This document shows, piece after piece, positions 9,204 to 25,247 of a stretch of 59,637 nt of DNA (position 1 is the first letter of the stretch; the number at the start of each line of letters is the position of its first letter). Both the position numbers and the translations under genes were made by a program. Location: the NCBI GenBank assembly GCA_965225945.1, contig CBDDBZ010000015.1, positions 1-59,637 of the forward strand, read 5' to 3'. The stretch comes from Alphaproteobacteria bacterium (GTDB taxonomy: Bacteria > Pseudomonadota > Alphaproteobacteria > GCA-2731375). The notes beneath the pieces are model-generated. The model ran no database searches and was not told the origin of the DNA. It was given only the letters and a program-made list of their open reading frames with translations.

Positions 9204-10375
9204 GGTTTTGGATCGGCATTGTGGTGCTCGAGGTATTCCTGAATGGCTGTTTCGAGTTCGGCGACGCTCTTGAACACGCCGCAACGGATTTGATCGCTGG
9301 TGATCAGGCCGAAGAAGCGTTCGACCTGGCTGAGCCAGGAGGCGGATGTCGGAGTGAAGTGCATATGGAAGCGAGGATGTTTTGCCAACCACGCCTTGAC
9401 CTTGGGATGCTTGTGGGTGGCGTAGTTGTCGGCGATCAGATGCAGGTCGAGCTTCTTGGGCGTCTCGGCGTCGATACGGCGCAGGAATTTCAGCCATTCC
9501 TGATGGCGGTGCCGCTTCATGCAGTGGCCGATGACCTTGCCGGTGGCGACGTCGAGCGCGGCGAACAATGTCGTCGTGCCGTGGCGCTTGTAGTCATGCG
9601 TCATGGTGCCGGCTCGGCCCTTCTTGATCGGCAAGCCGGGCTGTGTGCGGTCGAGCGCCTGGATCTGGCTCTTCTCGTCGACCGAGAGAACCAGCGCCTT
9701 GTCCGGCGGATCGAGATAGAGACCGACGATATCGCGCACCTTCTCGACGAAGTGTTCGTCATTCGACAGCTTGAAGGTCTTCACCAGGTGCGGCTTGAGG
9801 CCGTGCGCCTTCCAGATCCGCTGCACGCTGGTGTAGCTGAGGCCGACGGCACGGGCCATCTTGCGGATGCTCCAATGCGTCGCCGCCTCCGGCGTCTCGT
9901 GCAAGGTCTTATGCACAACCCGCTCGATCACCTCGGCGCTCAGCGGCGGCTTGCGTCCCGGTCGCGTCGCATCGCGGCGCAGTCCGGCGATGCCTTTGGC
10001 AAGGTAGCGCTCCTGCCAGCGCCACACCGTCACCTTACTTTTGCCGACCAACCGGACGATCGTCATCGTGCCGATCCCGTCAGCCGACAGCAACACGATC
10101 CGTGCCCGCCAAACCAGCTTCTGCGGCGTGTTCCGCCCAGAAACCAACCCTTCCAGCGTCGCCCGCTCCGCGGGAGACAGCCAGATGCATGCCAATGTCT
10201 TCGTCATTCCCCCAGAATCGCAGAACGCAAGCCCTTTGGGAAACTTTTGTTAGGATCGGAACACTAGAGAGGAATTGATCGTAATCACCGACAGAAATTC
10301 CATTTTCGCGAAACGGATTTTCCCCCTGCCACCGAGAACTCGCCTTGCGAGGCCATGCCAAACCGGGGACCGCCG

Positions 10376-11284
10376 CTAACCGGCCTCCTCCGGCGGCAGA
10401 CGGACCTCGACGCCGGCGCGCTCCTCTTGCAGGGTCAGCACCTTGGAGGTGTCGAAGCCGCCCCAGCCGCGCGCCATCGCCGCGCGCAGCTCGCGCTCGC
10501 AGATCGCCGCCAGCTCCATCGGCACCCCCGTCTCGGCCGCCAGCCCAGCCGCCAGGCCGAGGTCCTTGGCCGCCAGCGCCAGGGCGAAGCGGGGCTCGAA
10601 ATCGCCCCTGAGATAGGTCTCGCGCAACCGCACCTTGAGGTTGCTCATGCGGCCGAGCGCGCCTTGGGTGAAGACCTCGACCAGTACCTCCGGCGCGACG
10701 CCGGCCTTGACGCCGGTGGTCCAGCATTCCGCCATGACGAGATCGAGGGTGAAGGAGGCGCTGTTGTGCAGGATCTTGGCGACGCAGCCGCTGCCGATGG
10801 CACCGGTGTGGATGATCCGCTCGGCGATCGCCTCGAGGTACGGCCGCGCGCGGGCCACCGCCGCCCCCTCGCCCCCGACCATCACCAAGAGATCGCGGAT
10901 CCGCGCGCCCTCGACGCCGCCGCTCACCGGCGCGTCGAGCATGGCCACGCCCTCCGCGGCGAAGGCCGCGTGCACACGGCGCGCCAGCGCCGGCGCGTTG
11001 GTGGTGTGATCGATGAAGAGCATGCCCGGCCGCGCGCCCGCGAGGAGCCCATCGGGGCCCAGCGTCACCGCCTCCATCTCCGGCGGCCCCGGCAGGCAGG
11101 TGACGACGACGTCGCAGGCCTCGGCCACCTCGGCGGGTGAATGGGCACGCCTCGCCCCCGCCGCCGTCAGCGAGGCGCCGGCATCGGCGCGGCGGTCGTG
11201 GACCACCAACGCGTTGCCGGCGGCGAGGAGCTGGTGCGCGATGGGCGTCCCGATGTTGCCGGTGCCGATGAAGCCCGTGGGCAT
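10376..11284 (-). CDS. NAD(P)-dependent oxidoreductase, 3-hydroxyisobutyrate dehydrogenase / beta-hydroxyacid dehydrogenase family
   Basis: GFIGTGNIG, LDAPVSGG, GSGCVAKILHN, FALALAAKDL. Confidence 0.9.
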   Translation of the reverse strand: MPTGFIGTGNIGTPIAHQLLAAGNALVVHDRRADAGASLTAAGARRAHSPAEVAEACDVVVTCLPGPPEMEAVTLGPDGLLAGARPGMLFIDHTTNAPALARRVHAAFAAEGVAMLDAPVSGGVEGARIRDLLVMVGGEGAAVARARPYLEAIAERIIHTGAIGSGCVAKILHNSASFTLDLVMAECWTTGVKAGVAPEVLVEVFTQGALGRMSNLKVRLRETYLRGDFEPRFALALAAKDLGLAAGLAAETGVPMELAAICERELRAAMARGWGGFDTSKVLTLQEERAGVEVRLPPEEAG

Positions 11285-11300
11285 GGCGCGCGCGCCCGAT

Positions 11301-12422
11301 TCAGAGAGCGTAGAGCCGACGGGAGTTGTCCCAGAGGATCTTTCGCTTGGCTTCCTCCGCGAGTTCGAGATCCAGGAACAGGTTCATCGCTTGCGGGTAT
11401 TTCGCGTCGCCATGGGGGTAGTCGGTGGTGGTCACCAGGCAGTCGTCGCCGATCACGTCGACCACGTGGGCGACGAAGTCCTCGTCACACTCGACCGCGC
11501 AGAAGCCCTGCCGGGCGAAATATTCCGAGGGCTTCAGCTTCAGGTCAGCCATCTCGCCATAGGGCCGGCGCCAAACATAGTGGTCGTCCATGCGGTCGAG
11601 CCAGAACGGCAGCCAGCCGCACTGGCCCTCCAGGAAGGCCATGCGAAGGCGGGGGAAACGCTCCATCACGCCGCCCATGATCACGTCCATGCAGGTCAGC
11701 ATCTGCTCGACCGGATGGGTCGAGATATGGGCGATGCCGAGCAGTTGGAAGCGGTCGGTGCCCGCCGCCTTCATGCGGCTGCCCGTGGTCTCGTGGAAGC
11801 CGACGGCGATGTCGAGATCCTGGCAGGTGGCCCAGAGCGGGTCGTAGTAGGGATCGTGCCAGGCCCGGTCGTTGAACAGGTTGGGGCGCAGGAAGATCGC
11901 CTTCATCTCTAGATCGCGGACCGCGCGCTTGGTCTCCTCGACCGCCGTCTCCACGTCGTGCGGCGAGACCGCGGCGGCGCCGAATAGGCGCTTGGGGTCG
12001 GCGGCCTGGATATAGTCGTACAGCCAGTCGTTATAGGCCCGGCAGACGGCGGCGGCGAAGCGCGGCTCCATCCGCTCGAAGGCGATGGCATACATCCCCG
12101 CGGTCGGATAGAGCACCGCCAGGTCCAGCCCCTCCTTCTCCATCGCGATCACCTGCGAGGGCGGATCGAAGTCGCGCGCGATCTCTTCCGCGTAGCGCTT
12201 CGCCATCGCCTCCTCTTCCGCGTCGCTCTGCGCGGGCCAGTCGCCGCCCGGAATCGTCGCCATCACCTCGCCCTCGACGACGGTGCGGATGTCCCAGCGG
12301 CGCTCGCTCAGCCGCTTGGGCGCGCGGTCGCGAAACTCGGCATCGATGTAACGGTCCCAAAGATCGACCGGCTCCATCACGTGCATCTCCGCATCGATGA
12401 TCTGGAATCCCCGCTTGGCCAT
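11301..12422 (-). CDS. Amidohydrolase_2 family protein (decarboxylase/hydratase-like)
   Basis: IIDAEMHVMEP, RAYNDWL, GFHE, FLEGQCGWLPFWLDRMD, TDYPHGD, KILWDNSRRLY. Confidence 0.88.
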   Translation of the reverse strand: MAKRGFQIIDAEMHVMEPVDLWDRYIDAEFRDRAPKRLSERRWDIRTVVEGEVMATIPGGDWPAQSDAEEEAMAKRYAEEIARDFDPPSQVIAMEKEGLDLAVLYPTAGMYAIAFERMEPRFAAAVCRAYNDWLYDYIQAADPKRLFGAAAVSPHDVETAVEETKRAVRDLEMKAIFLRPNLFNDRAWHDPYYDPLWATCQDLDIAVGFHETTGSRMKAAGTDRFQLLGIAHISTHPVEQMLTCMDVIMGGVMERFPRLRMAFLEGQCGWLPFWLDRMDDHYVWRRPYGEMADLKLKPSEYFARQGFCAVECDEDFVAHVVDVIGDDCLVTTTDYPHGDAKYPQAMNLFLDLELAEEAKRKILWDNSRRLYAL

Positions 12423-12562
12423 GGCTCGTCCTCCGCTTCCCGTCGCGATGTATCCTTCGATTTTCCACGCCTAACCTCGAAGAGTCCAATCGAGGCGATA
12501 TCGCGGCTCCGATGGGCTATGATGGCGGGGCTCGCAACGGGCAAACCCTGAGGAGAATGAAC

Positions 12563-13306
12563 ATGGCCATCCGCAAGCGTATCGGGGTGTTGATCCCCTC
12601 CACCAACACGAGCTGCGAGGCGGACTTTCAAATGGTCGCGCCGAGCGACGTGACCATCCACGGTCAACGTCTCTGGCTGACCAACGACGCCCGAGGCGAT
12701 TCCGCCATGGAGCGGATGAACGCCGAGATCGAGAGTGGCGCCCGCTATCTGGCGACCGCGAAGGTCGACGTCGTCGCCTACGGCTGCACCACCGGCAGCT
12801 TCTACAAGGGCCCCGGATGGGACCGCGACATGATCGCGCTGATGGCCCGAGAGGCGGGCGTGCCGGCCGTCGCCACCAGCCCCTCGGTGGTCGAGGCTTT
12901 GCATCACTTCGGCGCCCGCAAGATCTCCGTCGCCAGCCCCTATCCCGCCTGGAACAACGAGAAGCTCGAGGCCTATATGGAGGCGGCCGGCTTCGAGGTA
13001 CTGAACGTCGAGGGCGAGCCCTGGGCGGCCGAGGCCGGCGCCCAGGGGATCAACGACCAGGACCCCGAGGTCGTGGTCGAGTTCGCCGAGCGGGCCTGCC
13101 GGCCGGAGGCCGACGTGCTGTTCTGTTCCTGCACCGCGTGGCGCTCGATGGAGGTGGTGGCGGAGCTGGAGCGCCGCACCGGCAAGCCGGTCGTGACCTC
13201 CAACCAAGCCACCGTGTGGGCCGCCTTCCGCGCCCTCGGCATCGACGCCCCGATCGAGGGCTACGGAAGCCTGCTGGCGGACCGGGAGACGCGCAAAGCG
13301 GCATGA
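12563..13306 (+). CDS. Maleate cis-trans isomerase / Asp-Glu racemase family protein
   Basis: IGVLIPSTNT, YGCTTGS and SCTAW (two catalytic Cys), GKPVVTSNQA; AGGAGA RBS. Confidence 0.88.
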   Translation: MAIRKRIGVLIPSTNTSCEADFQMVAPSDVTIHGQRLWLTNDARGDSAMERMNAEIESGARYLATAKVDVVAYGCTTGSFYKGPGWDRDMIALMAREAGVPAVATSPSVVEALHHFGARKISVASPYPAWNNEKLEAYMEAAGFEVLNVEGEPWAAEAGAQGINDQDPEVVVEFAERACRPEADVLFCSCTAWRSMEVVAELERRTGKPVVTSNQATVWAAFRALGIDAPIEGYGSLLADRETRKAA

Positions 13307-13318
13307 TCTCGGCGCCGC

Positions 13319-14455
13319 TCAGCCGAGTGCGCGCATCACCGCGTCGACCAGGCGCTCGGCATAGGGGCTGGCGCCCGGGCCGGGGGCGAGTCGGTTGGGG
13401 GTGAAGCCGAAACCGAGGCGGCGGTTCGAATCGGCGAAGCCCAAGGCACCGCCGATGCCGGTATGGCCGAAGGACGCGGGGTTGCCGCTGAAGGGCGCGT
13501 AATCGTTGGCCAGGCGAAAGCCCCGCGCCATCCGGCAGTCGAGGCCGAGCGCGTCGACATGGCGCCAGCGTTCTTCCACCGCGATTCCCGCCATCCGCCG
13601 GCTCAGCAGCCGTTCGCCCTCGCCGCGAAGGTCGTCGGCCAGCACGGCGTAGAGGCGCGCCACCCCTCGCGCGCTGCCATGACAGTTGAAGGCGGGCATC
13701 TCCGCGGCGCGGAAACGCTCCGTGTTGAAGTCTTCCTCGCCCGGGCCGAGCGGCAGCGGCGCCCAGCAGCGCCCGATCAGGCTATCCGAGTCGGTGATCG
13801 CCTCCAGCAGCGGATCGCCCGGCGTCCAAACCACGTCCGCCGTCGCCGCGCGGGCCTCCGCGTCGAGGCCGAAGGCGAGCGCGATGTCCAGCGGCTCGGC
13901 GATGTCTTCGCGGACCGCCTGGCCGAGGCTTCGCCCGTCGACCCGGCGGAAGATCTCGCCCACCAGGTGGCCGTAGGTGAAGGTGTGGTAGCACCCGCCC
14001 TCGCCCGGCGGCGTCATCGGGCGCGCCGCCTGGATCGCCTCGACCATGGCCGTCCAGTCGTAGGCGGCGCCGCGGGGCGCGCCGAAGGCGCCGGGCAGCC
14101 CCGCCTGGTGCGAGAGCACATGGTCGATGGTCGTGGCCTCCTTGCCGGCCCTAGCGTATTCCGGCCAATACTCGGCCACCCGATTTTCCAGCCCGACCGC
14201 GCCAGAATCGATCAGCCGCAACAGCGGCAGCGCCGCCACGGGCTTGCCGACAGAGAAGACGCAGACGGTCGTGTCCTCTTCCCAAGGCTCGCTGCGCGCG
14301 CCGTCGCGATGCCCGCCCCATAGGTCGACCACCAATTCGCCGTCCACCATCACGGCCACGGCCTCCCCGAGCTCTTGCCCGTCGGCGAGGTTGGTGGCCA
14401 GGGCCTCGGCCACGGCCTCGAAGTCCGGATGACAGTGGCCCGTGACGTCGGTCAT
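13319..14455 (-). CDS. Serine hydrolase (beta-lactamase fold, family VIII esterase-like)
   Basis: VDLWGG, FSVGK (SxxK), LSHQAGL, YHTFTYG, FGHTGIGG. Confidence 0.9.
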   Translation of the reverse strand: MTDVTGHCHPDFEAVAEALATNLADGQELGEAVAVMVDGELVVDLWGGHRDGARSEPWEEDTTVCVFSVGKPVAALPLLRLIDSGAVGLENRVAEYWPEYARAGKEATTIDHVLSHQAGLPGAFGAPRGAAYDWTAMVEAIQAARPMTPPGEGGCYHTFTYGHLVGEIFRRVDGRSLGQAVREDIAEPLDIALAFGLDAEARAATADVVWTPGDPLLEAITDSDSLIGRCWAPLPLGPGEEDFNTERFRAAEMPAFNCHGSARGVARLYAVLADDLRGEGERLLSRRMAGIAVEERWRHVDALGLDCRMARGFRLANDYAPFSGNPASFGHTGIGGALGFADSNRRLGFGFTPNRLAPGPGASPYAERLVDAVMRALG

Positions 14456-14538
14456 GCTCGGCCCCTCCCCAGGCCGGAGTATGGTGCCAGCGGTGCGCGT
14501 CGGGTAGTACGCACGGGCGCGCTGGAGGAGGTGAGGTG

Positions 14539-15564
14539 ATGAGCGAGATCGAATATGGACTGTTCGTGCGCGGCCAGTACCGCGCCGGCGACGACATGGC
14601 GAAACGCTTCGAGGAAGTGTTGGCGCAGGTCCGGCTCGCCGACCGGCTGGGCTTCGCCGATCTCCTCACCGGCATGCATTACGCCGCCGCACCGTTGCAG
14701 CAGTATCAATTGATTCCGCTGCTCGCCCGCCTGATGGCGGAAACCGATTCCATGCGCATCATCACCGGGATCGTCCTCTTGTCGCTCCATAAGCCGCTCG
14801 ACATGGCCGAACAGCTCGCCACCCTCGACGTGATGTCGGGTGGCCGCCTGGTGTTCGGCGCCGGCCTCGGCTACCGCGAGGTCGAGTTCAAAGGCTTCGG
14901 CACCACGCAATCGGAACGCGTGCCCCGCCTGGTCGAGAACCTGGTGGCGATCAAGCGACTCTGGACCGAGGACGCGGTCACGATGAAGGGCTCCCACTTC
15001 GAATTGATCGACGCGACCGTATCGCTGAAGCCGCTACAAAAGCCGATGCCGCCGATCTGGTTCGGCGCCAACGCCGACGGCGCGGTGCGCCGGGCGGCCG
15101 AGCTGGCCGACACCTGGTTCATCAATCCGCACCAACGCATGGCGACGATCGAGCGCCAGCTCTCGCTCTACAACCAGGCGCTGGAAGAATTCGGCAAGCC
15201 GCCACCCGCCGAGCTGCCGTTGATGCGGGAGATCTTCGTCGCCTCCAGCCGCGAGGAGGCAACCCGTCTCGCCCGGCCCTATCTCGAGGAGAAATACAAG
15301 GTCTACCACCATTGGGGTCAGGACAAGGCGATGCCGGCGGACGACGCCGACCTGTCGCTCGATTTCGACGAGCTGACCCGCGACCGTTTCCTCTTCGGCT
15401 CGCCCGACGAGGTGGCGGAACAGATCATCGGCTACAAGCAGCGGCTCGGCGTCACCCGGATGATCCTCTCCGTTCACTGGGTCGGCATGCCGCACGCCCA
15501 AGTCGAGGACAGCCTGCACCTCTTCGCCGAGGAAGTGATGCCGAGGGTGAAACAAGGGCTGTAG
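14539..15564 (+). CDS. LLM class flavin-dependent oxidoreductase
   Basis: AEQLATLDVMSGGRLVFGAGLGYREVEF, KPLQKPMPPIWFGA, FGSPDEV. Confidence 0.9.
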   Translation: MSEIEYGLFVRGQYRAGDDMAKRFEEVLAQVRLADRLGFADLLTGMHYAAAPLQQYQLIPLLARLMAETDSMRIITGIVLLSLHKPLDMAEQLATLDVMSGGRLVFGAGLGYREVEFKGFGTTQSERVPRLVENLVAIKRLWTEDAVTMKGSHFELIDATVSLKPLQKPMPPIWFGANADGAVRRAAELADTWFINPHQRMATIERQLSLYNQALEEFGKPPPAELPLMREIFVASSREEATRLARPYLEEKYKVYHHWGQDKAMPADDADLSLDFDELTRDRFLFGSPDEVAEQIIGYKQRLGVTRMILSVHWVGMPHAQVEDSLHLFAEEVMPRVKQGL

Positions 15565-15601
15565 CCGGCCCGGAGCGCTTGCCAGGGAGCAAGGACGGGG
15601 G

Positions 15602-15988
15602 TCAATGCGCGCCCTCGCCGAGCTTGGCGGGGACCTCGCGGTAGAAGCAGCTGAGGTAGCCCTTGCCGCAGACCGGATGCTCGGGCACGGTCTCGAAGAC
15701 CACGGTGTCGTCGTCGCAATCGACCAGGACACGAGATATGCGGACGAACTTGCCGTCCTCCTCCCCCATCCGCCAGACTCGGCCGAGGGTGCGGCGATAG
15801 AGCGTCAGAAGACCGCTCTCGCAGCTCGCCCGCCAGGCCTCCTCATTCATGAAGCCGACCATCAGCACCTCGCGGCTATAGGCGTGCTGCACCACGCAGG
15901 GCACCAGGCCGCCCATCTTGTCGAAGTCGAGGGGGATGGGCTCGAAGCTCTCGCCCGGACCCGCGGAATCCTCTATCACTTCGGTCAT
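15602..15988 (-). CDS. hisI: Phosphoribosyl-AMP cyclohydrolase-like protein (divergent HisI paralog)
   Basis: DFDKMGGLVPCVVQ, VLMVGFMNEEA, DCDDD and SCFY match HisI; CHTG is changed to CGKG and WxKGETSG to WRMGEEDG. Start overlaps the upstream stop (ATGA). Confidence 0.8.
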   Translation of the reverse strand: MTEVIEDSAGPGESFEPIPLDFDKMGGLVPCVVQHAYSREVLMVGFMNEEAWRASCESGLLTLYRRTLGRVWRMGEEDGKFVRISRVLVDCDDDTVVFETVPEHPVCGKGYLSCFYREVPAKLGEGAH

Positions 15989-17271
15989 CGCTCGCTCCTC
16001 CCGCACGCCGGTGGCGCGCCGGCGAGGGTATTCTTGTGGATGCGCCCGGCCTTGGCGACCAGACGCACTCGGCTCGCCTGGCCCAGGCTCCAAATATCGT
16101 CCAGGGGATCGCCGTCGAAGGCCACCAAGTCTGCGATTTGGCCGGCTTCCAAGGTTCCCAGATCGGAATAGCCGAGGAAATCGGCCGCCGTCGAAGTGGC
16201 GGCGACGATCGCCTGCATCGGCGTCATGCCCAGGTAGTCGACCATGTAGCCGAGCTCGATCAAGTTTTCGCCGGTCAGCAGGCGGTGCGACTGATCGGTC
16301 CCCATGGCGACCTTGACACCGCGCCTGACGGCCTCCCGGAAGAGCGGGATCTGGGCCTCCAGGCCGGCCATGATGCGGGCTTCCTTGCTGGTCTCGTCCG
16401 CCAGCTCCTGCCCGGCCCAGGCCTTGTCGCGCCGGCGCCGCTTATGGCCCTCCGGAATCAGCGCCAGCGTCGGCACCCACCAGGTGCCTTGGGCCAACAT
16501 GGTCTCGATACATTCCTCGTCCAGGAACCAGCCGTGCTCGATCGAGCGGGCGCCGCCTTCGAGGGCGTTCTTGATCCCCTGCAAGCCTTCCGCGTGGACC
16601 GCCACGTAGGTGCCCTTGGCCTCCGCCTCGGCGACGGCGGTGGCGATCTCCTCGACGCTGAACTGCACCTCGTCGTAATCATCGGTGACCGACGTGACGC
16701 CGCCCGTGGTGCAGACCTTGAGGAAATCGGCGCCCCGCATCAAAAACTCGCGGCAGACCCGGCGCATCCCATCCACCCCGTCGGCGATGTTGTTGGGCAG
16801 CCAGAGGCGTTTCGGTACCGGGAAGCCGGCTGGTACGAAGACGTCGCCATGCCCGCCGCTCTGGCTGATCATGGCGATCGAGACCTGCAGGCGCGGTCCG
16901 GGAACGATGTCCTCGGCGATCGCCTGGCGAAAGCCGGCATCGGCCCCGCCGGTATCGCGCGCGGTGGTAACGCCGCAGTCGAGCGTCGCCCGCAACAATT
17001 GCTGAGAGCGGAAAATGTTGTAGGTCGGATGGTTCTTGAGGTGGGAGCCGTAGTCGCGCGCCCGATAGGCGCAATGCAGGTGGCAGTCGACGAAGCCGGG
17101 GAGGATGGTAGCGCCCGCGACGTCGATCACCTCGGCGCTGGCCGGTACCGTCACGGCGCTCGCCGGACCGGCGGCCACGATCCGGCTTCCCTCGACCACG
17201 ACGACGCCGTCGGCCGCCGGGTCCCGGCCGCTTCCGTCGATCAGTCGGCCGCCGAGTACCGCCCAGCTCAT
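15985..17271 (-). CDS. Metal-dependent amidohydrolase (Xaa-Pro dipeptidase-like subgroup)
   Basis: PGFVDCHLH, GVTTARDTGG, FLKVCTTGGV, VHAEG, IEHG, MGTD, GTLEAGQIADLV. Confidence 0.9.
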   Translation of the reverse strand: MSWAVLGGRLIDGSGRDPAADGVVVVEGSRIVAAGPASAVTVPASAEVIDVAGATILPGFVDCHLHCAYRARDYGSHLKNHPTYNIFRSQQLLRATLDCGVTTARDTGGADAGFRQAIAEDIVPGPRLQVSIAMISQSGGHGDVFVPAGFPVPKRLWLPNNIADGVDGMRRVCREFLMRGADFLKVCTTGGVTSVTDDYDEVQFSVEEIATAVAEAEAKGTYVAVHAEGLQGIKNALEGGARSIEHGWFLDEECIETMLAQGTWWVPTLALIPEGHKRRRRDKAWAGQELADETSKEARIMAGLEAQIPLFREAVRRGVKVAMGTDQSHRLLTGENLIELGYMVDYLGMTPMQAIVAATSTAADFLGYSDLGTLEAGQIADLVAFDGDPLDDIWSLGQASRVRLVAKAGRIHKNTLAGAPPACGRSER

Positions 17272-17293
17272 GCTTCGCGTTCCCTCGTCGTCG

Positions 17294-18022
17294 TCATGCG
17301 TATTTCAGTGCCTCGTCGGCGAAGCGTCGCGCCATCGTCTGGGGGCGGCGCGCGCGCAGGATGGCCCGGCCGATGATGGCATAGCGCCGGCAACCCTCGG
17401 CCGCGCCGAAGGCCTCGTCGATTTTGCCACCGAGGGCGCCGATCCCCGGCAGGAACATCCAGGGGGTCTCGAAGTGCCGGCGCACCATGCGGACATGGCG
17501 GCGAACGGTCTTGGGATCGTTGGCCGGCACGATGACATGATCGACGCCGACGCCCGTCGCCTCCTCCAGGATGCGGCCGAGCGCGCCGTCGTGGACGAAG
17601 CCCCCGTGACGGGCGCGGTATTCCGGATAGGGCAGCTCGCCGCCGACCAGCGGCGTCATGCCCCGGTTCCGCGTTCGCCTGGCGAACTGGCGCACCGCCT
17701 CGCGGCCCGCGAGCGGAAACAGCACCAGCCCGTCGGCGCCGGCCTCCCCGCAGACCTTGGTGAAGCCGTCCGACATCGAGGGGATGTCCGTTCCCGCCTT
17801 CTGATGGTCGTAGAGCACCGGCAGGTCGGAGAACTCGCGCACCACGGCGATCGCCCGATGCAGGCCATGGCGGAGCGCCACCACCGCGCCGAGCTTGAAG
17901 CCGACGACGCCCGGGACCGGCGCCAACGCCTCGACGATCCGGCGCATGCGGTCCAGGTCGTCGACGTCGAGCGCCGGGATGATGCCGGCGCTCGCTGCGA
18001 TCAGGGGCTTGGATTTGGCCAT
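17294..18022 (-). CDS. Orotidine-5-phosphate decarboxylase / HUMPS-like barrel (atypical motif)
   Basis: IIPALDV, GFKLG, YDHQKAGTDIP (variant of DxKxxDIP), LPGIGALGG, IIGRAILRA phosphate-binding motif. Confidence 0.78.
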   Translation of the reverse strand: MAKSKPLIAASAGIIPALDVDDLDRMRRIVEALAPVPGVVGFKLGAVVALRHGLHRAIAVVREFSDLPVLYDHQKAGTDIPSMSDGFTKVCGEAGADGLVLFPLAGREAVRQFARRTRNRGMTPLVGGELPYPEYRARHGGFVHDGALGRILEEATGVGVDHVIVPANDPKTVRRHVRMVRRHFETPWMFLPGIGALGGKIDEAFGAAEGCRRYAIIGRAILRARRPQTMARRFADEALKYA

Positions 18023-18044
18023 CGTCGACCTCGGCGGTCGCCGG

Positions 18045-18935
18045 CTAGTCACCCGCCGCGCGGCGCTCGGCGATGATGCGGCGCGCGCTCGGCTTGATCT
18101 CGCCCATGTCCATGGAGACATCGATCACGGTGACGCTGTGGGTGAGCGCGCCGACCGAGATGATGTCGACCCCAGTGGCGGCGATCGAGAGGATCGTCTC
18201 CTCGGTGATGCCGCCCGAGGCCTCGGTCGGCACCTGGCCGTCGACGATGGCGAGCCCCGCCTTCATGTCCTCCAGCGTCATGTTGTCGAACATGATGACG
18301 TCGGCGCCGGCGTCGAGCGCTTCGCGTACCTGATCCAGGGATTCGCACTCGACCTCGATCTTGAAGGTGTGCTGCGCGCGCTCCTTGAGGATTTGGACCG
18401 CGGCGGTGAGGCCACCCGCTGCCTTGATGTGGTTGTCCTTGACCAGGATCGCGTTCTGCAGGCCGAATATGTGGTTGTGGGCGCCGCCGATCCGGACGGC
18501 GTATTTCTGCAACAGACGAATGCCGGGGACGCCCTTGCGTGTATCGGTGATGCGGGTGCCGAAGGGCTTCACCAGCTCGACGTAGCGCCGGGTCTTGGTG
18601 GCGATGCCGCTCATGTATTGGATCCAATCGAGCGCCACCCGCTCGATCGAGAACAGCACCCAGGCCTTGGTCCGGATATGCATCAAAATGTCGCCCGGCG
18701 ACACCGCGTCGCCGTCCTGGACCCGCCATTCGATCTCGGCGTCGGGATCGAGCATCCGGACCGTCTCGTCGGCCAGCAGCAGACCACAGACGATGCCGGC
18801 CTCCTTGACGTAGATCTGCGCCTCGCCGGGTTGCACATCGTCGACCAGGAAGCCGCCGGTGGTATCGCCCGGATAGAGCTCCTCCTCCAGCGCCCGCTGG
18901 ATCGCGGGCCTGACGAGAAAGCGGTTGATCTGCAT
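18045..18935 (-). CDS. nadC: Quinolinate phosphoribosyltransferase-like protein (divergent NadC paralog)
   Basis: GDTT, ERVAL, SGIATKT, DTRK, KYAVRIGG, KDNHI, IEVECE, IMFDNM, EASGGIT, ISVGALTHS; NHR is changed to NHI. Confidence 0.88.
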   Translation of the reverse strand: MQINRFLVRPAIQRALEEELYPGDTTGGFLVDDVQPGEAQIYVKEAGIVCGLLLADETVRMLDPDAEIEWRVQDGDAVSPGDILMHIRTKAWVLFSIERVALDWIQYMSGIATKTRRYVELVKPFGTRITDTRKGVPGIRLLQKYAVRIGGAHNHIFGLQNAILVKDNHIKAAGGLTAAVQILKERAQHTFKIEVECESLDQVREALDAGADVIMFDNMTLEDMKAGLAIVDGQVPTEASGGITEETILSIAATGVDIISVGALTHSVTVIDVSMDMGEIKPSARRIIAERRAAGD

Positions 18936-19001
18936 GCCTCTCTCCCCCCGGGCGAATGGCCTGGTTCGTAGTCTAGTCGCGGATCGAGCTCCCCCGCAAT
19001 C

Positions 19002-19793
19002 TCACCGAAACGGTGCCAGGGCCAAGGTGGCGCCGGCGCGGAGGTGGTCGTATTCGGTCATCCGGGCCGGGCCGAAGATCTGGATGCCGCGCGCCCGCAT
19101 CGCCTCGTATTCGGCGCCGTCGCGGGGCCCGACCGCCGCCTCCACCGCGACCCCCTTGGCGAGCGCGCTCGCCACCACCCCTTCCATCGCCGCCAATAGC
19201 GTGGGATCGTCCCAACCGCCCGGCGTTGCCATGTCGGCCGCGAGATCGCCCGGGCCGAAGACGATGGCATCGACGCCGTCGACCGCCATCAACGCCTCGG
19301 CGTTCTCGATGCCGAGGGCGGATTCGATCTTCAGGATCACACACGTCGCCGCGTTGGCATCGGCCCGGTAGGTGGCGGAATCCTCGATCCAATAATCGGC
19401 GTTGGGGCCATGCGCCAGGGCCCGCACACCCAACGGCGGATACTTGGTGAAACGCACCAGATCCTCGACCTGGGCCACGGTCTCGGCGTGGCAGAGGCAG
19501 CAGCCGAGCGCGCCGGCGTCGAGCAGGCGGCCGATCTCGGCCCGATTCACCCCCGGGATGGTGACCACCGGGGAGAGGCCGGCGTCCCGCGCCATCACCA
19601 GGAAGTTCGTCAGGGTTTCGGGATCGTGGAGGATGTGTTCGGTCTCCACGAACAGCAGGTCGAAGCCGAGTTGGGAGACGATTCTGACCACCGAGGGGCG
19701 CAGCGCCTCGAAGACGTTGAAGGCGATCACCGGCCCCCCGTTTCTCAGGATCTCCTTGGCGCGATTGCGGATCGTGGGACCGTTCTCAGCCAT
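19002..19793 (-). CDS. HpcH/HpaI aldolase/citrate lyase family protein
   Basis: ETEH, LLDAGA, KYPPLGVR, KIES, FGPGDL; GGAGG RBS before ATG 19793. Confidence 0.85.
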   Translation of the reverse strand: MAENGPTIRNRAKEILRNGGPVIAFNVFEALRPSVVRIVSQLGFDLLFVETEHILHDPETLTNFLVMARDAGLSPVVTIPGVNRAEIGRLLDAGALGCCLCHAETVAQVEDLVRFTKYPPLGVRALAHGPNADYWIEDSATYRADANAATCVILKIESALGIENAEALMAVDGVDAIVFGPGDLAADMATPGGWDDPTLLAAMEGVVASALAKGVAVEAAVGPRDGAEYEAMRARGIQIFGPARMTEYDHLRAGATLALAPFR

Positions 19794-19895
19794 CGCCGGA
19801 CCTCCGTTGTCGCGTGGGGCTTGGCGGGAGGATACGAAATTCCGGGCGAGCGGGCGAGCGGGGCGGCACGGGGAGTCGCCTTTTATGGCGATTGG

Positions 19896-21118
19896 CACAG
19901 TACACGACTCGTTCATGCTGGCTTTGGCCTGGGCACCTGGACTGGTGGTTTTCCGGGGACGAGGAAACGAATCAGCTCAATGGCTTGACGCCTGTCGATA
20001 GGATTGACGAGCTGTCGCCTTATCCACTCGAAACCGTATCGGAAGATGGATTTTGCCATCCTTTTGTGGGTTTTGAGGCGGATCGGCTCGGCCTCGTGGA
20101 GCCAATCGCCGACTTTGTGCGCCCAGCAGAAGGTGATGGAAAGGACGGCGGTGAGCTTGGAGATGCGCTCCGGGTCGGTCATGTGGGTGTCTTCGAGGTT
20201 GAAGCCACGGGTTTTCAAGGCGGCGAAGAGGGTCTCGATTTGCCAGCGCTGGGCGTAGATGGCCAAGGCCTCCTCGGGCGCGTCGTTGGTCACGACGATC
20301 AACAGTTCGCCGGTCTTGAGATGGAGCGCGGCGACGAAGACGGGCCTGGCCTTGGGTTTTCTGGCCTCCGAGAGGCGCCTGGCGTTGGAGAGGATGCGGC
20401 TTTCCCCGGGTTTGAGGTCGCGAAACAGCTCCCTCGCCTTGACCATGCGACCACGCGTGTTGGCGATCTTGATGTTGGATCGGATGCGGATGTGAAAGGG
20501 GATGGCCTTTTCCTGCAACCATGCCAGCCAGGCGTCGCCGATGAATTCCCGGTCGGCCAGGAGGCTGGCGATCTTGTCGACCCCGAAGAGCCGGAGGACG
20601 TGTTCGAGGATCGCGATCCGCTCCTTGGTATTGGAATTGCCCGCCTTGTCGAGCACCCGCCAGCACACGGGAATGGCGATGGCGCGGTTGACGATGCCGA
20701 TCATCAAGATGTTGACGTCGCGGCGACCCAGCCGCCAGTTGGTCCGGTCCATGGTCAGCCGCCACGGCCCCGCCTGGAGCCCCATCATCGCGACCAGGAA
20801 CTCGGCGAGGCGATCGTAATCGAAATCGACTTGCTCGAAAAACCGTTGCAGGCGCCGATAGTTGGAGCTGGATCGCGCGCGCCCCGGAAAGTGGCAGGCC
20901 AAGTGAGAGAGGTTCACCGTCCGGGCGACGAACACGCCGAAGACCAAGACGCAAAGGCTCTCCAGACGGCTCTTGCGAAAGGCGAAGCCGCATCGTAGCG
21001 TCTCACGCAGGGCGTTGATCGGGTTGTCTCGCATGATTTCCCTCTTGACTCGTCGTGGAGTGAATCGGGAATCCTACAACCTTTTCAACGTCCTACGTAA
21101 ATGCCGTCGTGTACCATG
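19896..21118 (-). mobile_element. IS4-family insertion sequence
   Basis: Imperfect 13-bp IRs cacagtacacgac / gtcgtgtaccatg; 9-bp target duplication ggcgattgg at 19887-19895 and 21119-21127. Confidence 0.9.
19913..21034 (-). CDS. IS4-family DDE transposase
   Basis: NYRRLQRFF, MDRTNW, LADREF, YAQRWQIETLFAALKTRGFNLE (YREK-type signature). Confidence 0.92.
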   Translation of the reverse strand: MRDNPINALRETLRCGFAFRKSRLESLCVLVFGVFVARTVNLSHLACHFPGRARSSSNYRRLQRFFEQVDFDYDRLAEFLVAMMGLQAGPWRLTMDRTNWRLGRRDVNILMIGIVNRAIAIPVCWRVLDKAGNSNTKERIAILEHVLRLFGVDKIASLLADREFIGDAWLAWLQEKAIPFHIRIRSNIKIANTRGRMVKARELFRDLKPGESRILSNARRLSEARKPKARPVFVAALHLKTGELLIVVTNDAPEEALAIYAQRWQIETLFAALKTRGFNLEDTHMTDPERISKLTAVLSITFCWAHKVGDWLHEAEPIRLKTHKRMAKSIFRYGFEWIRRQLVNPIDRRQAIELIRFLVPGKPPVQVPRPKPA

Positions 21119-21168
21119 GGCGATTGGTATAAATTATTGCGTTGGAACATCGTCGGGGAGGGACGCGC

Positions 21169-23184
21169 ATGCGCGATCTGGTGCGGCTGGAGCTGATCCG
21201 GGAATCGCTGATCGCCGTGGTCAACGAAATGCGGGCGAACGTGATCCATTCGTCCTATTCTTCCGTGCTCTACGAAGGCCACGACTTCTCCTGCGCGCTG
21301 ATGACCGCCGACGGCCGCCAGATCGCCCAGTCGCTGGACGACCATCCGATCCACATCTTCGCCGTGCCCTATTCGACCGTGGAGGTCGCCACCGCCTTCG
21401 CCGGCGACATCCACGAGGGCGACATCTTCCTCCATAACGACCCCTATACCGGCGGCACCCACCTGAACGACATTCTGATGCTCCATCCCGTCTTCCACGA
21501 GGGCCGGCCGACGATCTTCACCGCCGTCCGCTGCCACTGGGGCGACGTCGGGGGCATGACGCCCGGCTCTCTCTCCGGCCAGGTTACCGAGATCATCCAG
21601 GAAGGCATCCGCATCACGCCGACGCGGATCTGTCACAAGGGGGAGATGAACGAGGCCTTTCTGGAGTTGATGTTCAACAACATGCGCACCAAGGCCGAGC
21701 GGATGGGCGACTTCAACACCATGCTCGGCACCACGCGCAAGGCCGCCGAGCACATCGAGCGGCTGTTCCAGCGCTTCGGCGGCGCCGTGCTGCTGGACGG
21801 CATCGAGGAACTGATCGCCCGGGCCGAGGCGCAGATGCGCGCCCGCATCGCCGAGCTTCCCGACGGCGTGCACCACGCCGAAGGCTATATCGAGAGCACC
21901 GGACCGACGCCGGAGCCGCTCTACGCGCGGCTCGAGCTCACCATCGAGGGTGACGAGATCACCGCCGACTTCACCGGCTCCTCGGCCCAGACCGCCGGTC
22001 CAACCAACATCGGCCCGTCGATGGCGATCAACTCCCTCGGCACCATCGTGAAATCGTTCCTCGACCCGACGACGCCGATCAACCACGGCTCCTTCGCGCC
22101 CCTTACCGTGATCGCGCCCGAGGGCAGCTTCACCAACGCGCGCTATCCCGCCCCCTGCGGCGCCATGGCCGAGGTCAAGCATCTGCTGGACGCGCTAGTC
22201 GCCAGCGCGCTGGGCGAGGCGGTGCCGGAGATGAAGATCGGCGACCACAAGGGCGGCGCCAACCACACCTACATCTCGGGCCCGGAGCCCACCGGCGAGG
22301 GCATCTATCTGCTGTATGAATGGCCGGCCGGCGGCACCGGCGGCACCGAGGGCGTCGACGGCAACCACGCCATGCGCTTCTACACTGAGGGCGATTTCAG
22401 CTCGCTCCACTCCGCCGAAGTGGTGGAGAGCCGCTTTCCGCTCAGAATCGAGCGGAGCGAGCTGCGCGAGGGCTCCTGCGGCGACGGGCGCTTTCGCGGC
22501 GGCCTCGGCATGCGGCGCGAGGTGCGTCTGGTGGGCGAGAAGGCCGTGCTCTCGGTGGTCTCGGAGAAGAACGTGATCCCGCCCTACGGGATCGACGGCG
22601 GCGGCAACGGCGCCGGCAACCGCTTCACCGTGATCCGCGACGGCGAGGTGATCGAGCCCTCGGCCGTCCCGGGCAAGATCTCCGGCTTCCCGCTCCGGTC
22701 CGGCGACGTGGTGCGGGAGGAATCCTCCGGCGGCGGCGGTTATGGCGACCCGCTGAGCCGCGAATTGGACCGCGTCGCCCGCGATCTCCGGCTCGGCTAC
22801 CTCGACCCCCGCCAGGCCGAGCTGCGCTATGGCGTGGTCCTGGACGAGGACGGCGCGATTCACCCGGCGGCCACGGAGGAATTGCGGGCGCGACTCCGCG
22901 ACGCGCGCGTCCACGTCACGCTGGAGGCCGCCAACGACGACCTCTTCGACGGACCACGGCGGCAATACCGCCTGCCGGGGGAAATCGCGGCGCGGCTCGG
23001 CGTGGCGGCGGGGCAGATGGTCGAGCTCAGGGCGGAGCATGGTCCCGGGGTCAGGGGCTGGGTGGAGATCGACGCGGCGGCGGCCGAGGGCATCCCCCTC
23101 GGCCCGGCGGGCATGCGGCTGCTCGGGGCCGCGCCGGGTGACCGCGTCGAGGTCCGTGCCGTTCGCCGCTCACCCACCCTCTAG
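21169..23184 (+). CDS. Hydantoinase B/oxoprolinase family protein with C-terminal extension
   Basis: DFSCAL, NDPYTGGTHLND, HWGDVGGMTPGS, GDGRFRGGLG, GGGGYGDP. Confidence 0.92.
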   Translation: MRDLVRLELIRESLIAVVNEMRANVIHSSYSSVLYEGHDFSCALMTADGRQIAQSLDDHPIHIFAVPYSTVEVATAFAGDIHEGDIFLHNDPYTGGTHLNDILMLHPVFHEGRPTIFTAVRCHWGDVGGMTPGSLSGQVTEIIQEGIRITPTRICHKGEMNEAFLELMFNNMRTKAERMGDFNTMLGTTRKAAEHIERLFQRFGGAVLLDGIEELIARAEAQMRARIAELPDGVHHAEGYIESTGPTPEPLYARLELTIEGDEITADFTGSSAQTAGPTNIGPSMAINSLGTIVKSFLDPTTPINHGSFAPLTVIAPEGSFTNARYPAPCGAMAEVKHLLDALVASALGEAVPEMKIGDHKGGANHTYISGPEPTGEGIYLLYEWPAGGTGGTEGVDGNHAMRFYTEGDFSSLHSAEVVESRFPLRIERSELREGSCGDGRFRGGLGMRREVRLVGEKAVLSVVSEKNVIPPYGIDGGGNGAGNRFTVIRDGEVIEPSAVPGKISGFPLRSGDVVREESSGGGGYGDPLSRELDRVARDLRLGYLDPRQAELRYGVVLDEDGAIHPAATEELRARLRDARVHVTLEAANDDLFDGPRRQYRLPGEIAARLGVAAGQMVELRAEHGPGVRGWVEIDAAAAEGIPLGPAGMRLLGAAPGDRVEVRAVRRSPTL

Positions 23185-23207
23185 CGTCTCCTCGCCCGAG
23201 TAGACCG

Positions 23208-25247
23208 ATGTCCCAACGACAACTTCTGATTGGGATCGACGTCGGCGGCACCTTCACCGACGTGCTGTGCTACGAGGCCCGAACCCAGACGCTACTGGCG
23301 GCCAAGGTGCCGTCGATCCCCGGCAGCCAATGGCGCGGCGTGCTCGACGCGCTGGATGCGCTCGGTGTCGATCGCGGCGACATTTCCGCCTTCGTCCACG
23401 GCACCACCATCGCCACCAACGCACTGCTGGAGCGCAAGGGCGCCAAGACCGGCATGGTCACCACGGAGGGCTTCCGCGACGTCATCGAGATCGGCCGCAC
23501 CCGCCGGCTGGTGGGGGGCCTGTTCGACATCAAGTTCGTTCGCGCAGCACCTATCGCCGAACGCGACGTCCGCCTCGAGGTGCCGGAACGCACGCTGAGC
23601 GACGGCACGATCGAGTCCGACATCGGCGACTTCGACTTCACCGAGATCGTGGAGATCTTCCGCGCCAAGGGCGTGGAGAGCATCGCCGTCTGTTTCCTCA
23701 ACGCCTATGTCGACGACACCACCGAACGGGCCGCTGCTGAGCGACTGGGGGCCCTGATGGCGGAAGTGCCGATCACCACCTCGGCCGCCGTGGTCCGCGA
23801 GCGGGGCGAATACGAGCGCTTCTCGACCGCCGTGCTGAACGCCTATCTGACGCCGGTGATGACGGGCTATCTCGACACGCTGGCGGGCGAGCTCGAGGCG
23901 AGCGGCGTTGCCGCGCCGGTCAACATCATGGGCTCCAACGGCGGCGCCATGACGCTCGAGCGGGCGGCCGGCCTGGTCGCCGCCACCTTCCTCTCCGGCC
24001 CCGTGGGCGGCGTCAACGGCGCGCTCCGGGTTGCCGAGCTCGCCGGCATCGAGCACTGCATCACCTTCGACATGGGCGGCACCAGCACCGACGTCGCGCT
24101 GGTCCACGACTTGGAGCCCCGGATCAGTCATGCCAACCAGGTCGACGCCTATCCCCTGCAGATGCCGCAGCTCGACATCCACACTATCGGCGCCGGCGGC
24201 GGCAGCATCGTGTGGGTCCGCCCCGACGGCACGCTGGAGCTGGGGCCCCAAAGCGCCGGCGCGGTGCCCGGTCCGGCCTGCTACGACCGGGGCGGCGCGG
24301 CGGCCACGATCTCCGACGCCAATCTGCTGCTCGGCCGCCTGCCCACCGACCGCGCGCTCAGTGGCGGCCTGAAACTGGCCTCGGCGCCGGCGATGCGGGC
24401 CTTCCGCGATCTCCTCCCGGCGCTGGGCGGGGGGGCGGGCGATCCCGTGCGCCTGGCCGACGGCGTGCTCAGAATTGCCGTCGCCAAGATGGCGGGGGCA
24501 GTGCGCGAGGTCTCGGTCCACCGGGGCCTCGATCCCCGCGACTTCACCATCGTCGGCTTCGGCGGCGCGGGGCCGATGCACGTGTTGCTGGTCGCCGACG
24601 AGCTGGCGATGGAGCGCGCGATGGTGCCGCGCTACCCGGGCCACCTCTCGGCGCTGGGACAGCTCCTAGCCGATCGCCGCCACGACTTCGTGCTGGCCTG
24701 GGGGGGGCGGCTCGGCGAACTCTCGATCGATGATTTGGCGACGCGGGTGGCCGGCATGCGGGCCGAGGCGACCGGCCTGCTGGAGGCCGACGGGATCGCG
24801 GGCGAGCGGATCCGCCACCGGGTGACGCTCGACATGCGCTACTCCGGCCAGTCCTTCACCCTCGCGGTGCCGTGGGACGACGCCAGCACCGAGTGGACGC
24901 CGTTGCGCCGGGCCTTCGATGCCCGCCACGAGGAGACCTTCGGTTATGCCGACACGGAGAACGACGCGGAGATCGTCAATATCCGGCTGGTGACACTCGG
25001 CCTCGTGGACAAGCCCGACCTCGCTTTCCGGACCGAGGCCGTCGGCGACGGGTTACGCGAGACCCGTCCCGTCTGGTTCGACGACGACTGGGCCGACTGC
25101 CCGATATACGATCGCGACGGAATCGCGGCGGGCGTCACCTTCGAGGGCCCCGCGATTGTCGAGGAGGCGGGCGGCACCACCGTGGTCCCGCCCGGCTGGC
25201 GGGTCCGGGTGCATGCCTCGGGCGCCCTCGACTGCCGCCGCCGGTGA
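23208..25247 (+). CDS. Hydantoinase A/oxoprolinase family protein (ATP-binding subunit)
   Basis: GIDVGGTFTD, HGTTIATNALLERKG, LSGPVGG, DMGGTSTD, IGAGGGS, GPQSAGAVPGPACY, FGGAGPMH. Confidence 0.93.
   Translation: MSQRQLLIGIDVGGTFTDVLCYEARTQTLLAAKVPSIPGSQWRGVLDALDALGVDRGDISAFVHGTTIATNALLERKGAKTGMVTTEGFRDVIEIGRTRRLVGGLFDIKFVRAAPIAERDVRLEVPERTLSDGTIESDIGDFDFTEIVEIFRAKGVESIAVCFLNAYVDDTTERAAAERLGALMAEVPITTSAAVVRERGEYERFSTAVLNAYLTPVMTGYLDTLAGELEASGVAAPVNIMGSNGGAMTLERAAGLVAATFLSGPVGGVNGALRVAELAGIEHCITFDMGGTSTDVALVHDLEPRISHANQVDAYPLQMPQLDIHTIGAGGGSIVWVRPDGTLELGPQSAGAVPGPACYDRGGAAATISDANLLLGRLPTDRALSGGLKLASAPAMRAFRDLLPALGGGAGDPVRLADGVLRIAVAKMAGAVREVSVHRGLDPRDFTIVGFGGAGPMHVLLVADELAMERAMVPRYPGHLSALGQLLADRRHDFVLAWGGRLGELSIDDLATRVAGMRAEATGLLEADGIAGERIRHRVTLDMRYSGQSFTLAVPWDDASTEWTPLRRAFDARHEETFGYADTENDAEIVNIRLVTLGLVDKPDLAFRTEAVGDGLRETRPVWFDDDWADCPIYDRDGIAAGVTFEGPAIVEEAGGTTVVPPGWRVRVHASGALDCRRR

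Follow-up and report, generated by a model that had tools for sequence, protein, structure and literature searches.

The described systems closest to the locus analysed here are the PyrE/PyrF pair of pyrimidine synthesis, the HisG/HisI enzymes of histidine synthesis, the NadC step of NAD synthesis and the URC pathway of uracil breakdown. In Lachancea kluyveri, URC1 and URC6 turn uracil into ribosylurea and 3-hydroxypropionate (accessible part of PMC7530994). For orotidine 5′-monophosphate (OMP) decarboxylase, the accessible part of PMC12395307 describes a tetrad of K42, D70, K72 and D75′ and a bond from the backbone N-H of S127 to O4 of the reaction intermediate. In NadC, the Arg of the NHR motif (R161 in human and pig, R162 in M. 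tuberculosis) helps to hold the 3-carboxylate of quinolinate and of nicotinate mononucleotide (NaMN), according to the accessible parts of PMC4726147 and PMC3633916. Here we compare these systems with a five-gene operon at positions 15602-19793 of a contig of 59,637 nucleotides from an alphaproteobacterium (assembly GCA_965225945.1, contig CBDDBZ010000015.1; this whole stretch is called the window below). The operon encodes relatives of NadC, OMP decarboxylase (PyrF) and HisI together with an amidohydrolase and an HpcH-like protein.

All five genes are read from the minus strand, each with an ATG start. From the first gene to the last they are:

19793-19002, minus strand: HpcH-like protein (HpcH/HpaI family), 263 amino acids, first gene of the operon (PF03328, 83.7 bits)
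18935-18045, minus strand: NadC-like type II phosphoribosyltransferase, 296 amino acids (QRPTase_C/QRPTase_N, 198.7/54.7 bits)
18022-17294, minus strand: PyrFl, the name used here for the OMP-decarboxylase-family protein of the operon, 242 amino acids (OMPdecase PF00215, 38 bits; motif YDHQKAG)
17271-15985, minus strand: amidohydrolase, 428 amino acids (Amidohydro_1, 157 bits)
15988-15602, minus strand: HisI-like protein with a phosphoribosyl-AMP cyclohydrolase (PRA-CH) domain, 128 amino acids (PF01502, 66.7 bits)

The junctions between the first four genes measure 66, 22 and 22 bp, and the amidohydrolase and HisI-like genes share a 4-base ATGA overlap. The open reading frames (ORFs) and junctions are exactly those described in an earlier note on this DNA, which had been made from the sequence alone. 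A purine-rich, Shine-Dalgarno-like stretch lies upstream of all five starts, and all five proteins pass their Pfam gathering scores. The same note had reported that nadA, nadB, pyrE and other his genes are missing nearby, and none was found among the ORFs annotated at 9092-27924 of the window. The genes flanking the operon on both sides belong to unrelated families.

A word-based protein search found 552 PyrFl relatives among 4821 candidates, with YDHQKAG as the invariant motif. When one genome per species was scanned with a pattern (185,579 species), 489 of the 524 matched stretches encoded a PyrFl relative. We determined gene content by profile searches over all ORFs in the best 80 of these 489 stretches, with at most 8 kb of flank; the resulting counts describe this sample and not natural frequencies. 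Carriers of PyrFl were found in Pseudomonadota, Actinomycetota, Bacillota, Acidobacteriota, Cyanobacteriota, Rokubacteria, Thermodesulfobacteriota and archaea.

A NadC-like gene was present in 58 of the 80 loci (57 in a first tblastn count), on the strand of PyrFl in 58/58 and directly upstream of it in 45/58. Orthologs of the amidohydrolase (53-67% identity) occurred in 46 loci (45 in the first tblastn count), an aldehyde dehydrogenase in 49 and a CinA/PncC-domain protein in 34. The HisI-like gene was detected in 15 loci (also 15 by tblastn) and lay directly downstream of PyrFl in 14/14. Less constant partners were a CobW-type GTPase (27/80), HAD phosphatases of two kinds (26/80 and 10/80), parts of a Liv-type ABC transporter (19/80 and 14/80), the large subunit of a molybdenum hydroxylase (12/80), a MocR-type regulator (9/80; PdxR-like score 421 vs 320) and a NAMPT-like transferase (5/80). 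The conserved gene set contained no oxygenase. HpcH-like genes were not found in any of the 80 loci.

Among relatives of the window genome the distribution of PyrFl is patchy, since only one of 40, the congener G007, carries it. This congener shares all five genes and their order, at 78-92% identity (78% for the HpcH-like protein). The flanks of its operon differ, transposases lying upstream and a Liv-type transporter downstream. Because a congener carries the same operon and the core genes share one strand in dozens of phylogenetically distant loci, the grouping is more than chance. We are inclined to regard the operon as a local variant of a widespread, undescribed gene cluster present in hundreds of bacterial species. 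The conserved co-location of all five families, for which the earlier note had suggested a search, holds in part: the NadC-like, PyrFl, amidohydrolase and HisI-like genes recur across phyla, whereas the HpcH-like gene does not, and the HisI-like gene is mostly replaced by CinA/PncC. A literature search, with subscription journals and supplementary files outside its reach, turned up no description of NadC-like, OMP-decarboxylase-like, HisI-like or CinA genes together.

PyrFl passes the OMPdecase gathering score (38 bits vs 27) and stays below the pyrF equivalog cut-offs (PRK13813, 56.4 vs 208; TIGR01740, 18.6 vs 92.3). Its AlphaFold model [predicted local distance difference test (pLDDT) 91.9] matches the OMP decarboxylase of M. 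thermautotrophicus with Foldseek template modelling (TM) scores of 0.81-0.89 at 21-24% identity, and a search of the ESM Atlas gave only OMPdecase-named clusters. By sequence alignment, PyrFl keeps equivalents of D20, K42, D70, D75 and R203, with little or no variation at those of K42, D70, D75 and R203. In place of DxKxxD there is an expanded motif, DHQKAGxD, and the counterpart of K72 is Q74 or K75 depending on gap placement. The positions of S127 and Q185 are occupied by Pro and Leu in the PyrFl of the window. Pro combined with Leu or Met stands there in all 72 bacterial loci that have at least one cluster partner gene, whereas Thr and Gln are kept in 15/15 archaeal stand-alone (8) or longer fused (7) relatives. 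The two groups are split with a support of 99 in a FastTree phylogeny. A proline has no backbone N-H to offer at the S127 position, and we take Q185 to be a uracil-contacting residue. These replacements point to a hydrophobic, non-uracil base pocket in PyrFl. A canonical OMPdecase is encoded on another contig of the genome (C31; 179.7 bits vs 37.8 for PyrFl in a genome search).

Seven proteins (P0241-P0247) fuse a PyrFl-family domain into longer chains. The N-terminus of the one that was checked resembles orotate phosphoribosyltransferase (OPRT; E = 9e-37 against solved structures). This OPRT-like N-terminus suggests that the DHQKAG branch probably includes true OMP decarboxylases. Further OMPdecase matches were found in 3 of 4 archaeal genomes examined, and one Thermoproteota metagenome-assembled genome had only the PyrFl type. 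The archaeal and fused part of the branch may represent true OMP decarboxylases or UMP synthases of a type not yet recognised, and the PyrFl of the bacterial cluster would be a derivative with a non-uracil pocket. Three of the fused proteins carry a precomputed phosphoribosyltransferase domain. Stand-alone members of the DHQKAG branch occur in archaea of the Methanosarcinales, ANME-1, Bathyarchaeia and Thermoproteota (L051, L052, L060, L062, L065, L066, L075 and L079).

The NadC-like protein exceeds the nadC equivalog cut-off (TIGR00078, 300.4 vs 198.4) and retains both QRPTase domains and most active-site motifs. Its NHR motif reads NHI. The equivalent of human R161 is thus Ile, and the basic pocket for the 3-carboxylate (R138, H160, R161 and K171) is incomplete. 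This Arg is replaced by I, L or M in 46/46 cluster NadCs, whereas it is present in 4/4 canonical paralogs from cluster-bearing genomes. Other changes specific to the clade are ALN to ALD, TRKT to TRKG and LLDN to MFDN. The earlier note had proposed trees as a test for distinct clades. In a quick maximum-likelihood tree, which has long branches and for which a careful search was unfinished, 47/47 cluster NadCs group together [Shimodaira-Hasegawa-like approximate likelihood-ratio test (SH-aLRT) 99; branch length 1.74] and are set apart from 13 canonical NadCs, taken from relatives and from the cluster-bearing genomes themselves.

The HisI-like protein stays below the hisI equivalog cut-off (90.6 vs 126), and a canonical hisI is located on contig C36 (121.7 bits vs 68.5 for the HisI-like gene in a genome search). 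Alignment to 6j22 and to the genome's own HisI showed that three Cys and the DCDxD motif, which we take to bind metal, are kept. After the second Cys, the protein of the window has Gly instead of His (C-G-K-G; canonical, C-H-x-G). This His is replaced in 10 of 15 readable cluster HisI-like sequences and kept in 5. HisI-like and CinA/PncC genes never occurred together (0/80 loci); the CinA/PncC-domain protein scores 112.6 vs 68.9 for TIGR00199. Mapped onto the PyrFl tree, the distribution of HisI-like genes requires 5 changes, and well-supported branches force at least 4 of these, indicating that the swap between HisI-like and CinA happened repeatedly. Both hydrolases thus seem to take the same place in the cluster. 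The amidohydrolase scores 265 vs an equivalog cut-off of 500, and among solved structures it is closest to prolidase, Arg-carboxypeptidase and ochratoxinase-type enzymes, which cut N-acyl amide bonds. We had considered an enamidase-like ring hydrolase and abandoned this idea, because the nearest solved structures are of the carboxypeptidase/ochratoxinase type instead.

The HpcH-like protein misses the TIGR02311 equivalog cut-off (98 vs 368.8). In the column of HpaI Arg70, presumably the catalytic Arg, it has a Thr (T78) that is invariant in 14/14 aligned sequences of its subfamily. E157 and D183, which we assume to be metal ligands, are also invariant. The subfamily is large, with 622 matches among 8000 scored candidates. 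We rejected the HpcH-like gene as a core member, given its absence from the 80 loci and the finding of an ortholog in only 1 of 300 genomes of the class (G012), where PyrFl and NadC are missing. On contig C95 of that genome (L106: 206-2425), the neighbours of the gene are a class IV aminotransferase and an RraA-like aldolase. When metagenomes were scanned with HpcH, one contig of 1149 bp without context was returned. We conclude that the HpcH-like gene, the first of the operon, is a local addition whose function is independent of the PyrFl cluster, and that elsewhere an aldehyde dehydrogenase takes its place.

Altered specificity residues, claimed in the earlier note for the NadC, PyrF and HisI paralogs and for the aldolase, were found in each of them: NHI in NadC, Pro/Leu and DHQKAGxD in PyrFl, C-G in HisI and Thr at Arg70 in the HpcH-like protein. 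The presence of canonical pyrF and hisI elsewhere in the genome and the separate NadC clade likewise agree with repurposed paralogs and not with housekeeping genes.

The transferase of the cluster varies. In two Bacillota loci (Aneurinibacillus and Alicyclobacillus), a divergent NAMPT-like protein (165 vs a cut-off of 405) replaces NadC directly upstream of PyrFl and the HisI-like gene. In Aneurinibacillus, these genes are followed by a PRPP (phosphoribosyl pyrophosphate) synthetase, an inosine-uridine nucleoside hydrolase and a Cof-type HAD phosphatase. One cyanobacterial NAMPT-like protein scores above its equivalog cut-off. The NAMPT-like loci and the OPRT fusions reinforce the link between phosphoribosyltransferases and PyrFl. 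Marine gammaproteobacterial loci combine a dihydroorotase-like amidohydrolase, PyrFl, a HisI-like gene and a Liv-type transporter. A Desulfovibrio metagenome-assembled genome carries PyrFl, aldehyde dehydrogenase, CinA, amidohydrolase and NadC-like genes. Observations that inform the mechanism (ALTERNATIVES) are the HisI-like/CinA exchange, the variable transferase, the marine loci without a transferase and the Desulfovibrio cluster. In Burkholderiales-type loci (L044, L058, L059, L063, L069, L078, L084 and L085), the cluster is divergent from the large subunit of the molybdenum hydroxylase. A SoxA-like cytochrome c gene lies near these same loci, probably as part of an unrelated sulfur-oxidation context.

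Compared with the described systems, the cluster resembles PyrE/PyrF in its logic. In PyrE/PyrF a heterocyclic acid is N-phosphoribosylated and the neighbouring carboxylate then removed, and we propose the same for the cluster. PyrFl also shares the OMP-decarboxylase fold and the equivalents of K42, D70, D75 and R203, and has cousins fused to an OPRT-like domain. Unlike PyrE/PyrF, however, the cluster has a transferase of the type II NadC-like kind, the DHQKAGxD motif, Pro/Leu at the uracil-contact positions and scores that widely miss the pyrF cut-offs, and the window genome has a separate canonical pyrF. The NadC of NAD synthesis is matched in both Pfam domains, in most active-site motifs and in a TIGR00078 score above the cut-off, whereas the cluster NadC belongs to a separate long-branch clade, has lost the NHR Arg in 46/46 sequences, is unlinked to nadA/nadB and is an extra copy elsewhere. 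With HisG/HisI the cluster has in common a PRA-CH protein with three Cys and DCDxD downstream of a phosphoribosyltransferase, but HisG and other his genes are lacking, the hisI cut-off is missed, the His is lost in 10/15 sequences and CinA/PncC is interchangeable with the HisI-like protein. URC6 is, we assume, a phosphoribosyltransferase and URC1 a cyclohydrolase homolog. The URC pathway sets a precedent for heterocycle breakdown via ribosylated intermediates; the likeness is one of logic only, and this pathway differs in its pyrimidine substrate and in having no decarboxylase step. The cluster is not the same system as PyrE/PyrF, HisG/HisI or URC.

On balance, we favour the view that the cluster encodes an undescribed PRPP-dependent route that would act on an N-heterocyclic carboxylate at the nucleotide level and would probably be catabolic. 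What we observed is the gene set with its conservation, the separate clades and the residue changes; from these we infer substrate, reactions, step order and direction. The NadC-like enzyme would transfer 5-phosphoribose from PRPP onto the ring nitrogen. PyrFl would then remove the carboxylate next to the ribosylated nitrogen, as OMP decarboxylase does, and the NadC-like/PyrFl pair would parallel PyrE/PyrF. The HisI-like protein, a putative zinc hydrolase replaced by a CinA/PncC-type protein in most other loci, and the amidohydrolase would hydrolyse the activated ring or an attached amide or amidine group. The reaction would free the nitrogen and a carbonyl product, which might pass to the HpcH-like protein in this genus and be oxidised by aldehyde dehydrogenase elsewhere. 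HAD nucleotidases/phosphatases or a nucleoside hydrolase would recover the ribose. The order given in the earlier note (activation, decarboxylation, ring opening, de-amidation and cleavage) and its catabolic direction are putative in the same way.

The lost Arg of NadC and the predicted hydrophobic pocket of PyrFl suggest a ring that has neither the 3-carboxylate of quinolinate nor the carbonyl oxygens of uracil. The most likely substrate is a pyridine-type ring with a carboxylate next to the ring nitrogen, and picolinate-type acids would fit. The molybdenum hydroxylase may act on the heterocycle before phosphoribosylation. No decarboxylase of picolinate mononucleotide or NaMN turned up in the literature, with subscription journals and supplementary files again outside the search, and a paper on the dipicolinate ‘dip’ cluster (PMC11472048) showed no phosphoribosyltransferase term in its search entry.

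As a tentative extension, which we consider possible though doubtful, the cluster could break pyridine-type rings independently of oxygen. A NadC- or NAMPT-like enzyme would make an electrophilic ribotide of an alpha-carboxy N-heterocycle (picolinate or a pyridine dicarboxylate, for instance), PyrFl would decarboxylate it, and the HisI-like or CinA protein together with the amidohydrolase would open the ring with water. Phosphoribosylamine and an unsaturated aldehyde or oxo-acid would result, the latter to be oxidised by aldehyde dehydrogenase or cleaved by the HpcH-like protein. Desulfovibrio, one of the carriers, is a genus of strict anaerobes.

Several points weigh against the proposed pathway. 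Each reaction is assigned from the family membership of its putative enzyme. The 80 loci are the top-scoring of 489, and many are short contigs or close kin. The marine gammaproteobacterial loci lack a phosphoribosyltransferase within 8 kb. If the HisI-like protein opens the ring, a CinA-type amidase is not an obvious substitute for it. Conservation of the cluster does not extend to the HpcH-like gene, so lineages differ in how the pathway ends. Apart from R161, the NadC-like protein retains all residues of the pocket for the 3-carboxylate, and its ER motif still has the Arg. The human R161A variant reportedly keeps ~20% capacity (accessible parts of PMC4726147 and PMC3633916). Given the score above the TIGR00078 cut-off, the kept pocket residues and the capacity of R161A, quinolinate may still be a substrate of the NadC-like enzyme. 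Moreover, the operon NadC is the only QRPTase_C match in the window genome (G000; 96.55% complete, 5.58% contamination), and this genome has a kynurenine-pathway cluster and gave no nadA or NAPRTase match.

These last points lead to the explanation that the NadC-like protein is an ordinary quinolinate phosphoribosyltransferase of housekeeping NAD synthesis, converting kynurenine-derived quinolinate to NaMN beside paralogs that are unrelated or redundant. The kynurenine-pathway cluster, on contig C29 (L107: 4137-9768), comprises genes for a DHDPS-family protein, 3-hydroxyanthranilate dioxygenase, tryptophan 2,3-dioxygenase, an FAD monooxygenase and kynureninase. The TIGR00078 score favours this explanation, as does the absence of any NadA, NAPRTase or NAMPT match in the 96.55% complete genome; Tistlia consotensis, too, has the cluster NadC only and no NadA. 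We nevertheless consider the explanation very unlikely. Among 30 relatives, NadC and NadA were found in exactly the same 9 genomes, and the sole exception, with NadC and without NadA, was G007, which together with the window genome is the only one of these genomes to carry PyrFl. The congener G006 (98% complete) and six family genomes have 3-hydroxyanthranilate dioxygenase and gave no NadC, NadA or NAPRTase/NAMPT match, so that kynurenine genes in this family do not come with NadC. Of 5 other cluster-bearing genomes examined, 4 have a canonical NadC with the NHR motif in addition to that of the cluster, and in two of them the other copy lies at most 3 kb from nadA. The clade as a whole lacks the Arg that binds the 3-carboxylate, and the same-strand linkage to PyrFl in 58/58 loci would be left unexplained. 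The earlier note had suggested looking for canonical copies elsewhere in the genome; they exist for pyrF (C31) and hisI (C36) but not for nadC. As evidence against its reading it had named sole copies that complement E. coli auxotrophs; NadC is a sole copy, but the absence of nadA and the data from the relatives argue against this role. A side role of the NadC-like enzyme in NAD synthesis from kynurenine-derived quinolinate could exist. Seven further family genomes gave no match to 3-hydroxyanthranilate dioxygenase, NadC, NadA or NAPRTase/NAMPT (relatives G006-G023).

Two further explanations accept a common function of the cluster genes. Starting from PRPP and a heterocyclic acid, the cluster might make a non-canonical nucleotide or nucleoside, a cofactor or a natural product, with a HAD phosphatase or nucleoside hydrolase releasing the product. 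All core enzymes do come from biosynthetic families, and the PRPP synthetase, nucleoside hydrolase and HAD phosphatase that follow PyrFl and the HisI-like gene in Aneurinibacillus, the nucleotidase-type HAD genes of 36/80 loci (26 + 10) and the CobW-type metallochaperone of 27/80 would fit. The common neighbours, however, are of uptake and catabolism types (a Liv-type ABC importer with its binding protein, aldehyde dehydrogenase in 49/80 loci, MocR and molybdenum hydroxylase), no tailoring, export or resistance genes were found in the annotated loci, and a variable pathway end (aldehyde dehydrogenase or HpcH-like protein, HAD or nucleoside hydrolase) better suits a feed of carbon into central metabolism. 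Because of the importers, regulators, aldehyde dehydrogenase and patchy, island-like distribution we favour catabolism and consider biosynthesis unlikely. The other explanation, which we regard as quite unlikely, is turnover of pyridine nucleotides: the cluster would dispose of nicotinamide mononucleotide (NMN), NaMN or damaged pyridine mononucleotides, the NadC-like, NAMPT-like and CinA proteins feeding one ribotide to PyrFl and the hydrolases. Three protein types of NAD metabolism do occur with PyrFl (NadC-like in 58, CinA/PncC in 34 and NAMPT-like in 5 loci), and the marine loci without a nearby phosphoribosyltransferase would suit a pathway that starts from a nucleotide or nucleoside. Against this stand the NadC clade without the residue contacting the 3-carboxylate of nicotinate and the strong divergence of the Bacillota NAMPT-like proteins (165 vs 405). 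In addition, as we deduce from the accessible part of PMC12395307, OMP-decarboxylase chemistry would take a carboxylate beside the ribosylated nitrogen, not the 3-carboxylate of NaMN. Taken together, we consider the PRPP-dependent pathway proposed in the earlier note right in outline, as a solid lead to an undescribed pathway and not a demonstrated one.

The surroundings of the operon in the window include one mobile element:

19896-21118, minus strand: IS4-family insertion sequence, ~1223 bp (transposase ORF 21034-19913; NCBIfam transpos_IS4_2, 264 bits)

This element lies 102 bp upstream of the first start codon of the operon. More than 20 copies in the genome, mostly near-identical, are among the BLAST matches listed, which looks like a recent expansion. 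The homology of the operon region to G007 stops near the HpcH start. The element replaces the native upstream region of the operon and has no role in the pathway. Scans for promoters, terminators and inverted repeats of the insertion sequence yielded nothing above shuffled expectation. The element separates the operon from divergent hydantoinase/caprolactamase-like genes, and its sequence reaches a depth of 58-67 in metatranscriptome contigs.

We also considered the neighbours in the window as pathway members (Amidohydro_2, Amdase/EutA-like protein, luciferase-like oxidoreductase, beta-lactamase-like esterase and caprolactamase-like HydAB) and rejected them, since each had at most one weak match in the 80 loci. 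Across the insertion sequence, the divergent stretch 21142-27924 encodes caprolactamase/oxoprolinase-like HydB and HydA (271 and 489 bits, far under the equivalog cut-offs), an unassigned ORF of 197 amino acids, a short MetE-like protein and a PhnZ-like HD-domain oxygenase (188 bits vs 214.6), and may be another catabolic unit.

Exact pieces of the HpcH-like, NadC-like and amidohydrolase genes were detected in four RNA-library runs from at least two studies, at a depth of only 2-4. One metatranscriptome contig extends across the HpcH-NadC junction (18723-19154); flanking genes are covered too, and DNA carry-over is possible. These contigs are no proof of transcription, and the uncovered parts are uninformative. 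Part or all of the operon was present in twenty public runs from nine studies, some of them labelled sponge or marine sediment metagenome, and the runs with these labels hold 38-73% of the sampled operon words.

Our findings indicate that NadC, PyrF, HisI and the HpaI-type aldolase are represented here by specialised paralogs, each without a residue that defines the classical substrate, and that three of them travel together across at least eight bacterial phyla. Annotation pipelines call these genes nadC, pyrF and hisI and thereby inflate the apparent capacity for NAD, pyrimidine and histidine synthesis, as in this genome with its sole ‘nadC’ and missing nadA. PyrFl would be a case in which OMP decarboxylase, a model of extreme catalysis, was retuned to a base other than uracil. 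The cluster offers a testable lead with candidate enzymes, diagnostic motifs and culturable carriers (Xanthobacter, Tistlia, Aneurinibacillus and Alicyclobacillus). If the pathway is catabolic, it would explain how bacteria, anaerobes included, use pyridine carboxylates without oxygenases. If ring breakage is indeed independent of oxygen, it would represent a third general strategy for the degradation of N-heteroaromatic compounds, beside the oxygenase-dependent and the reductive ones, in several hundred species.

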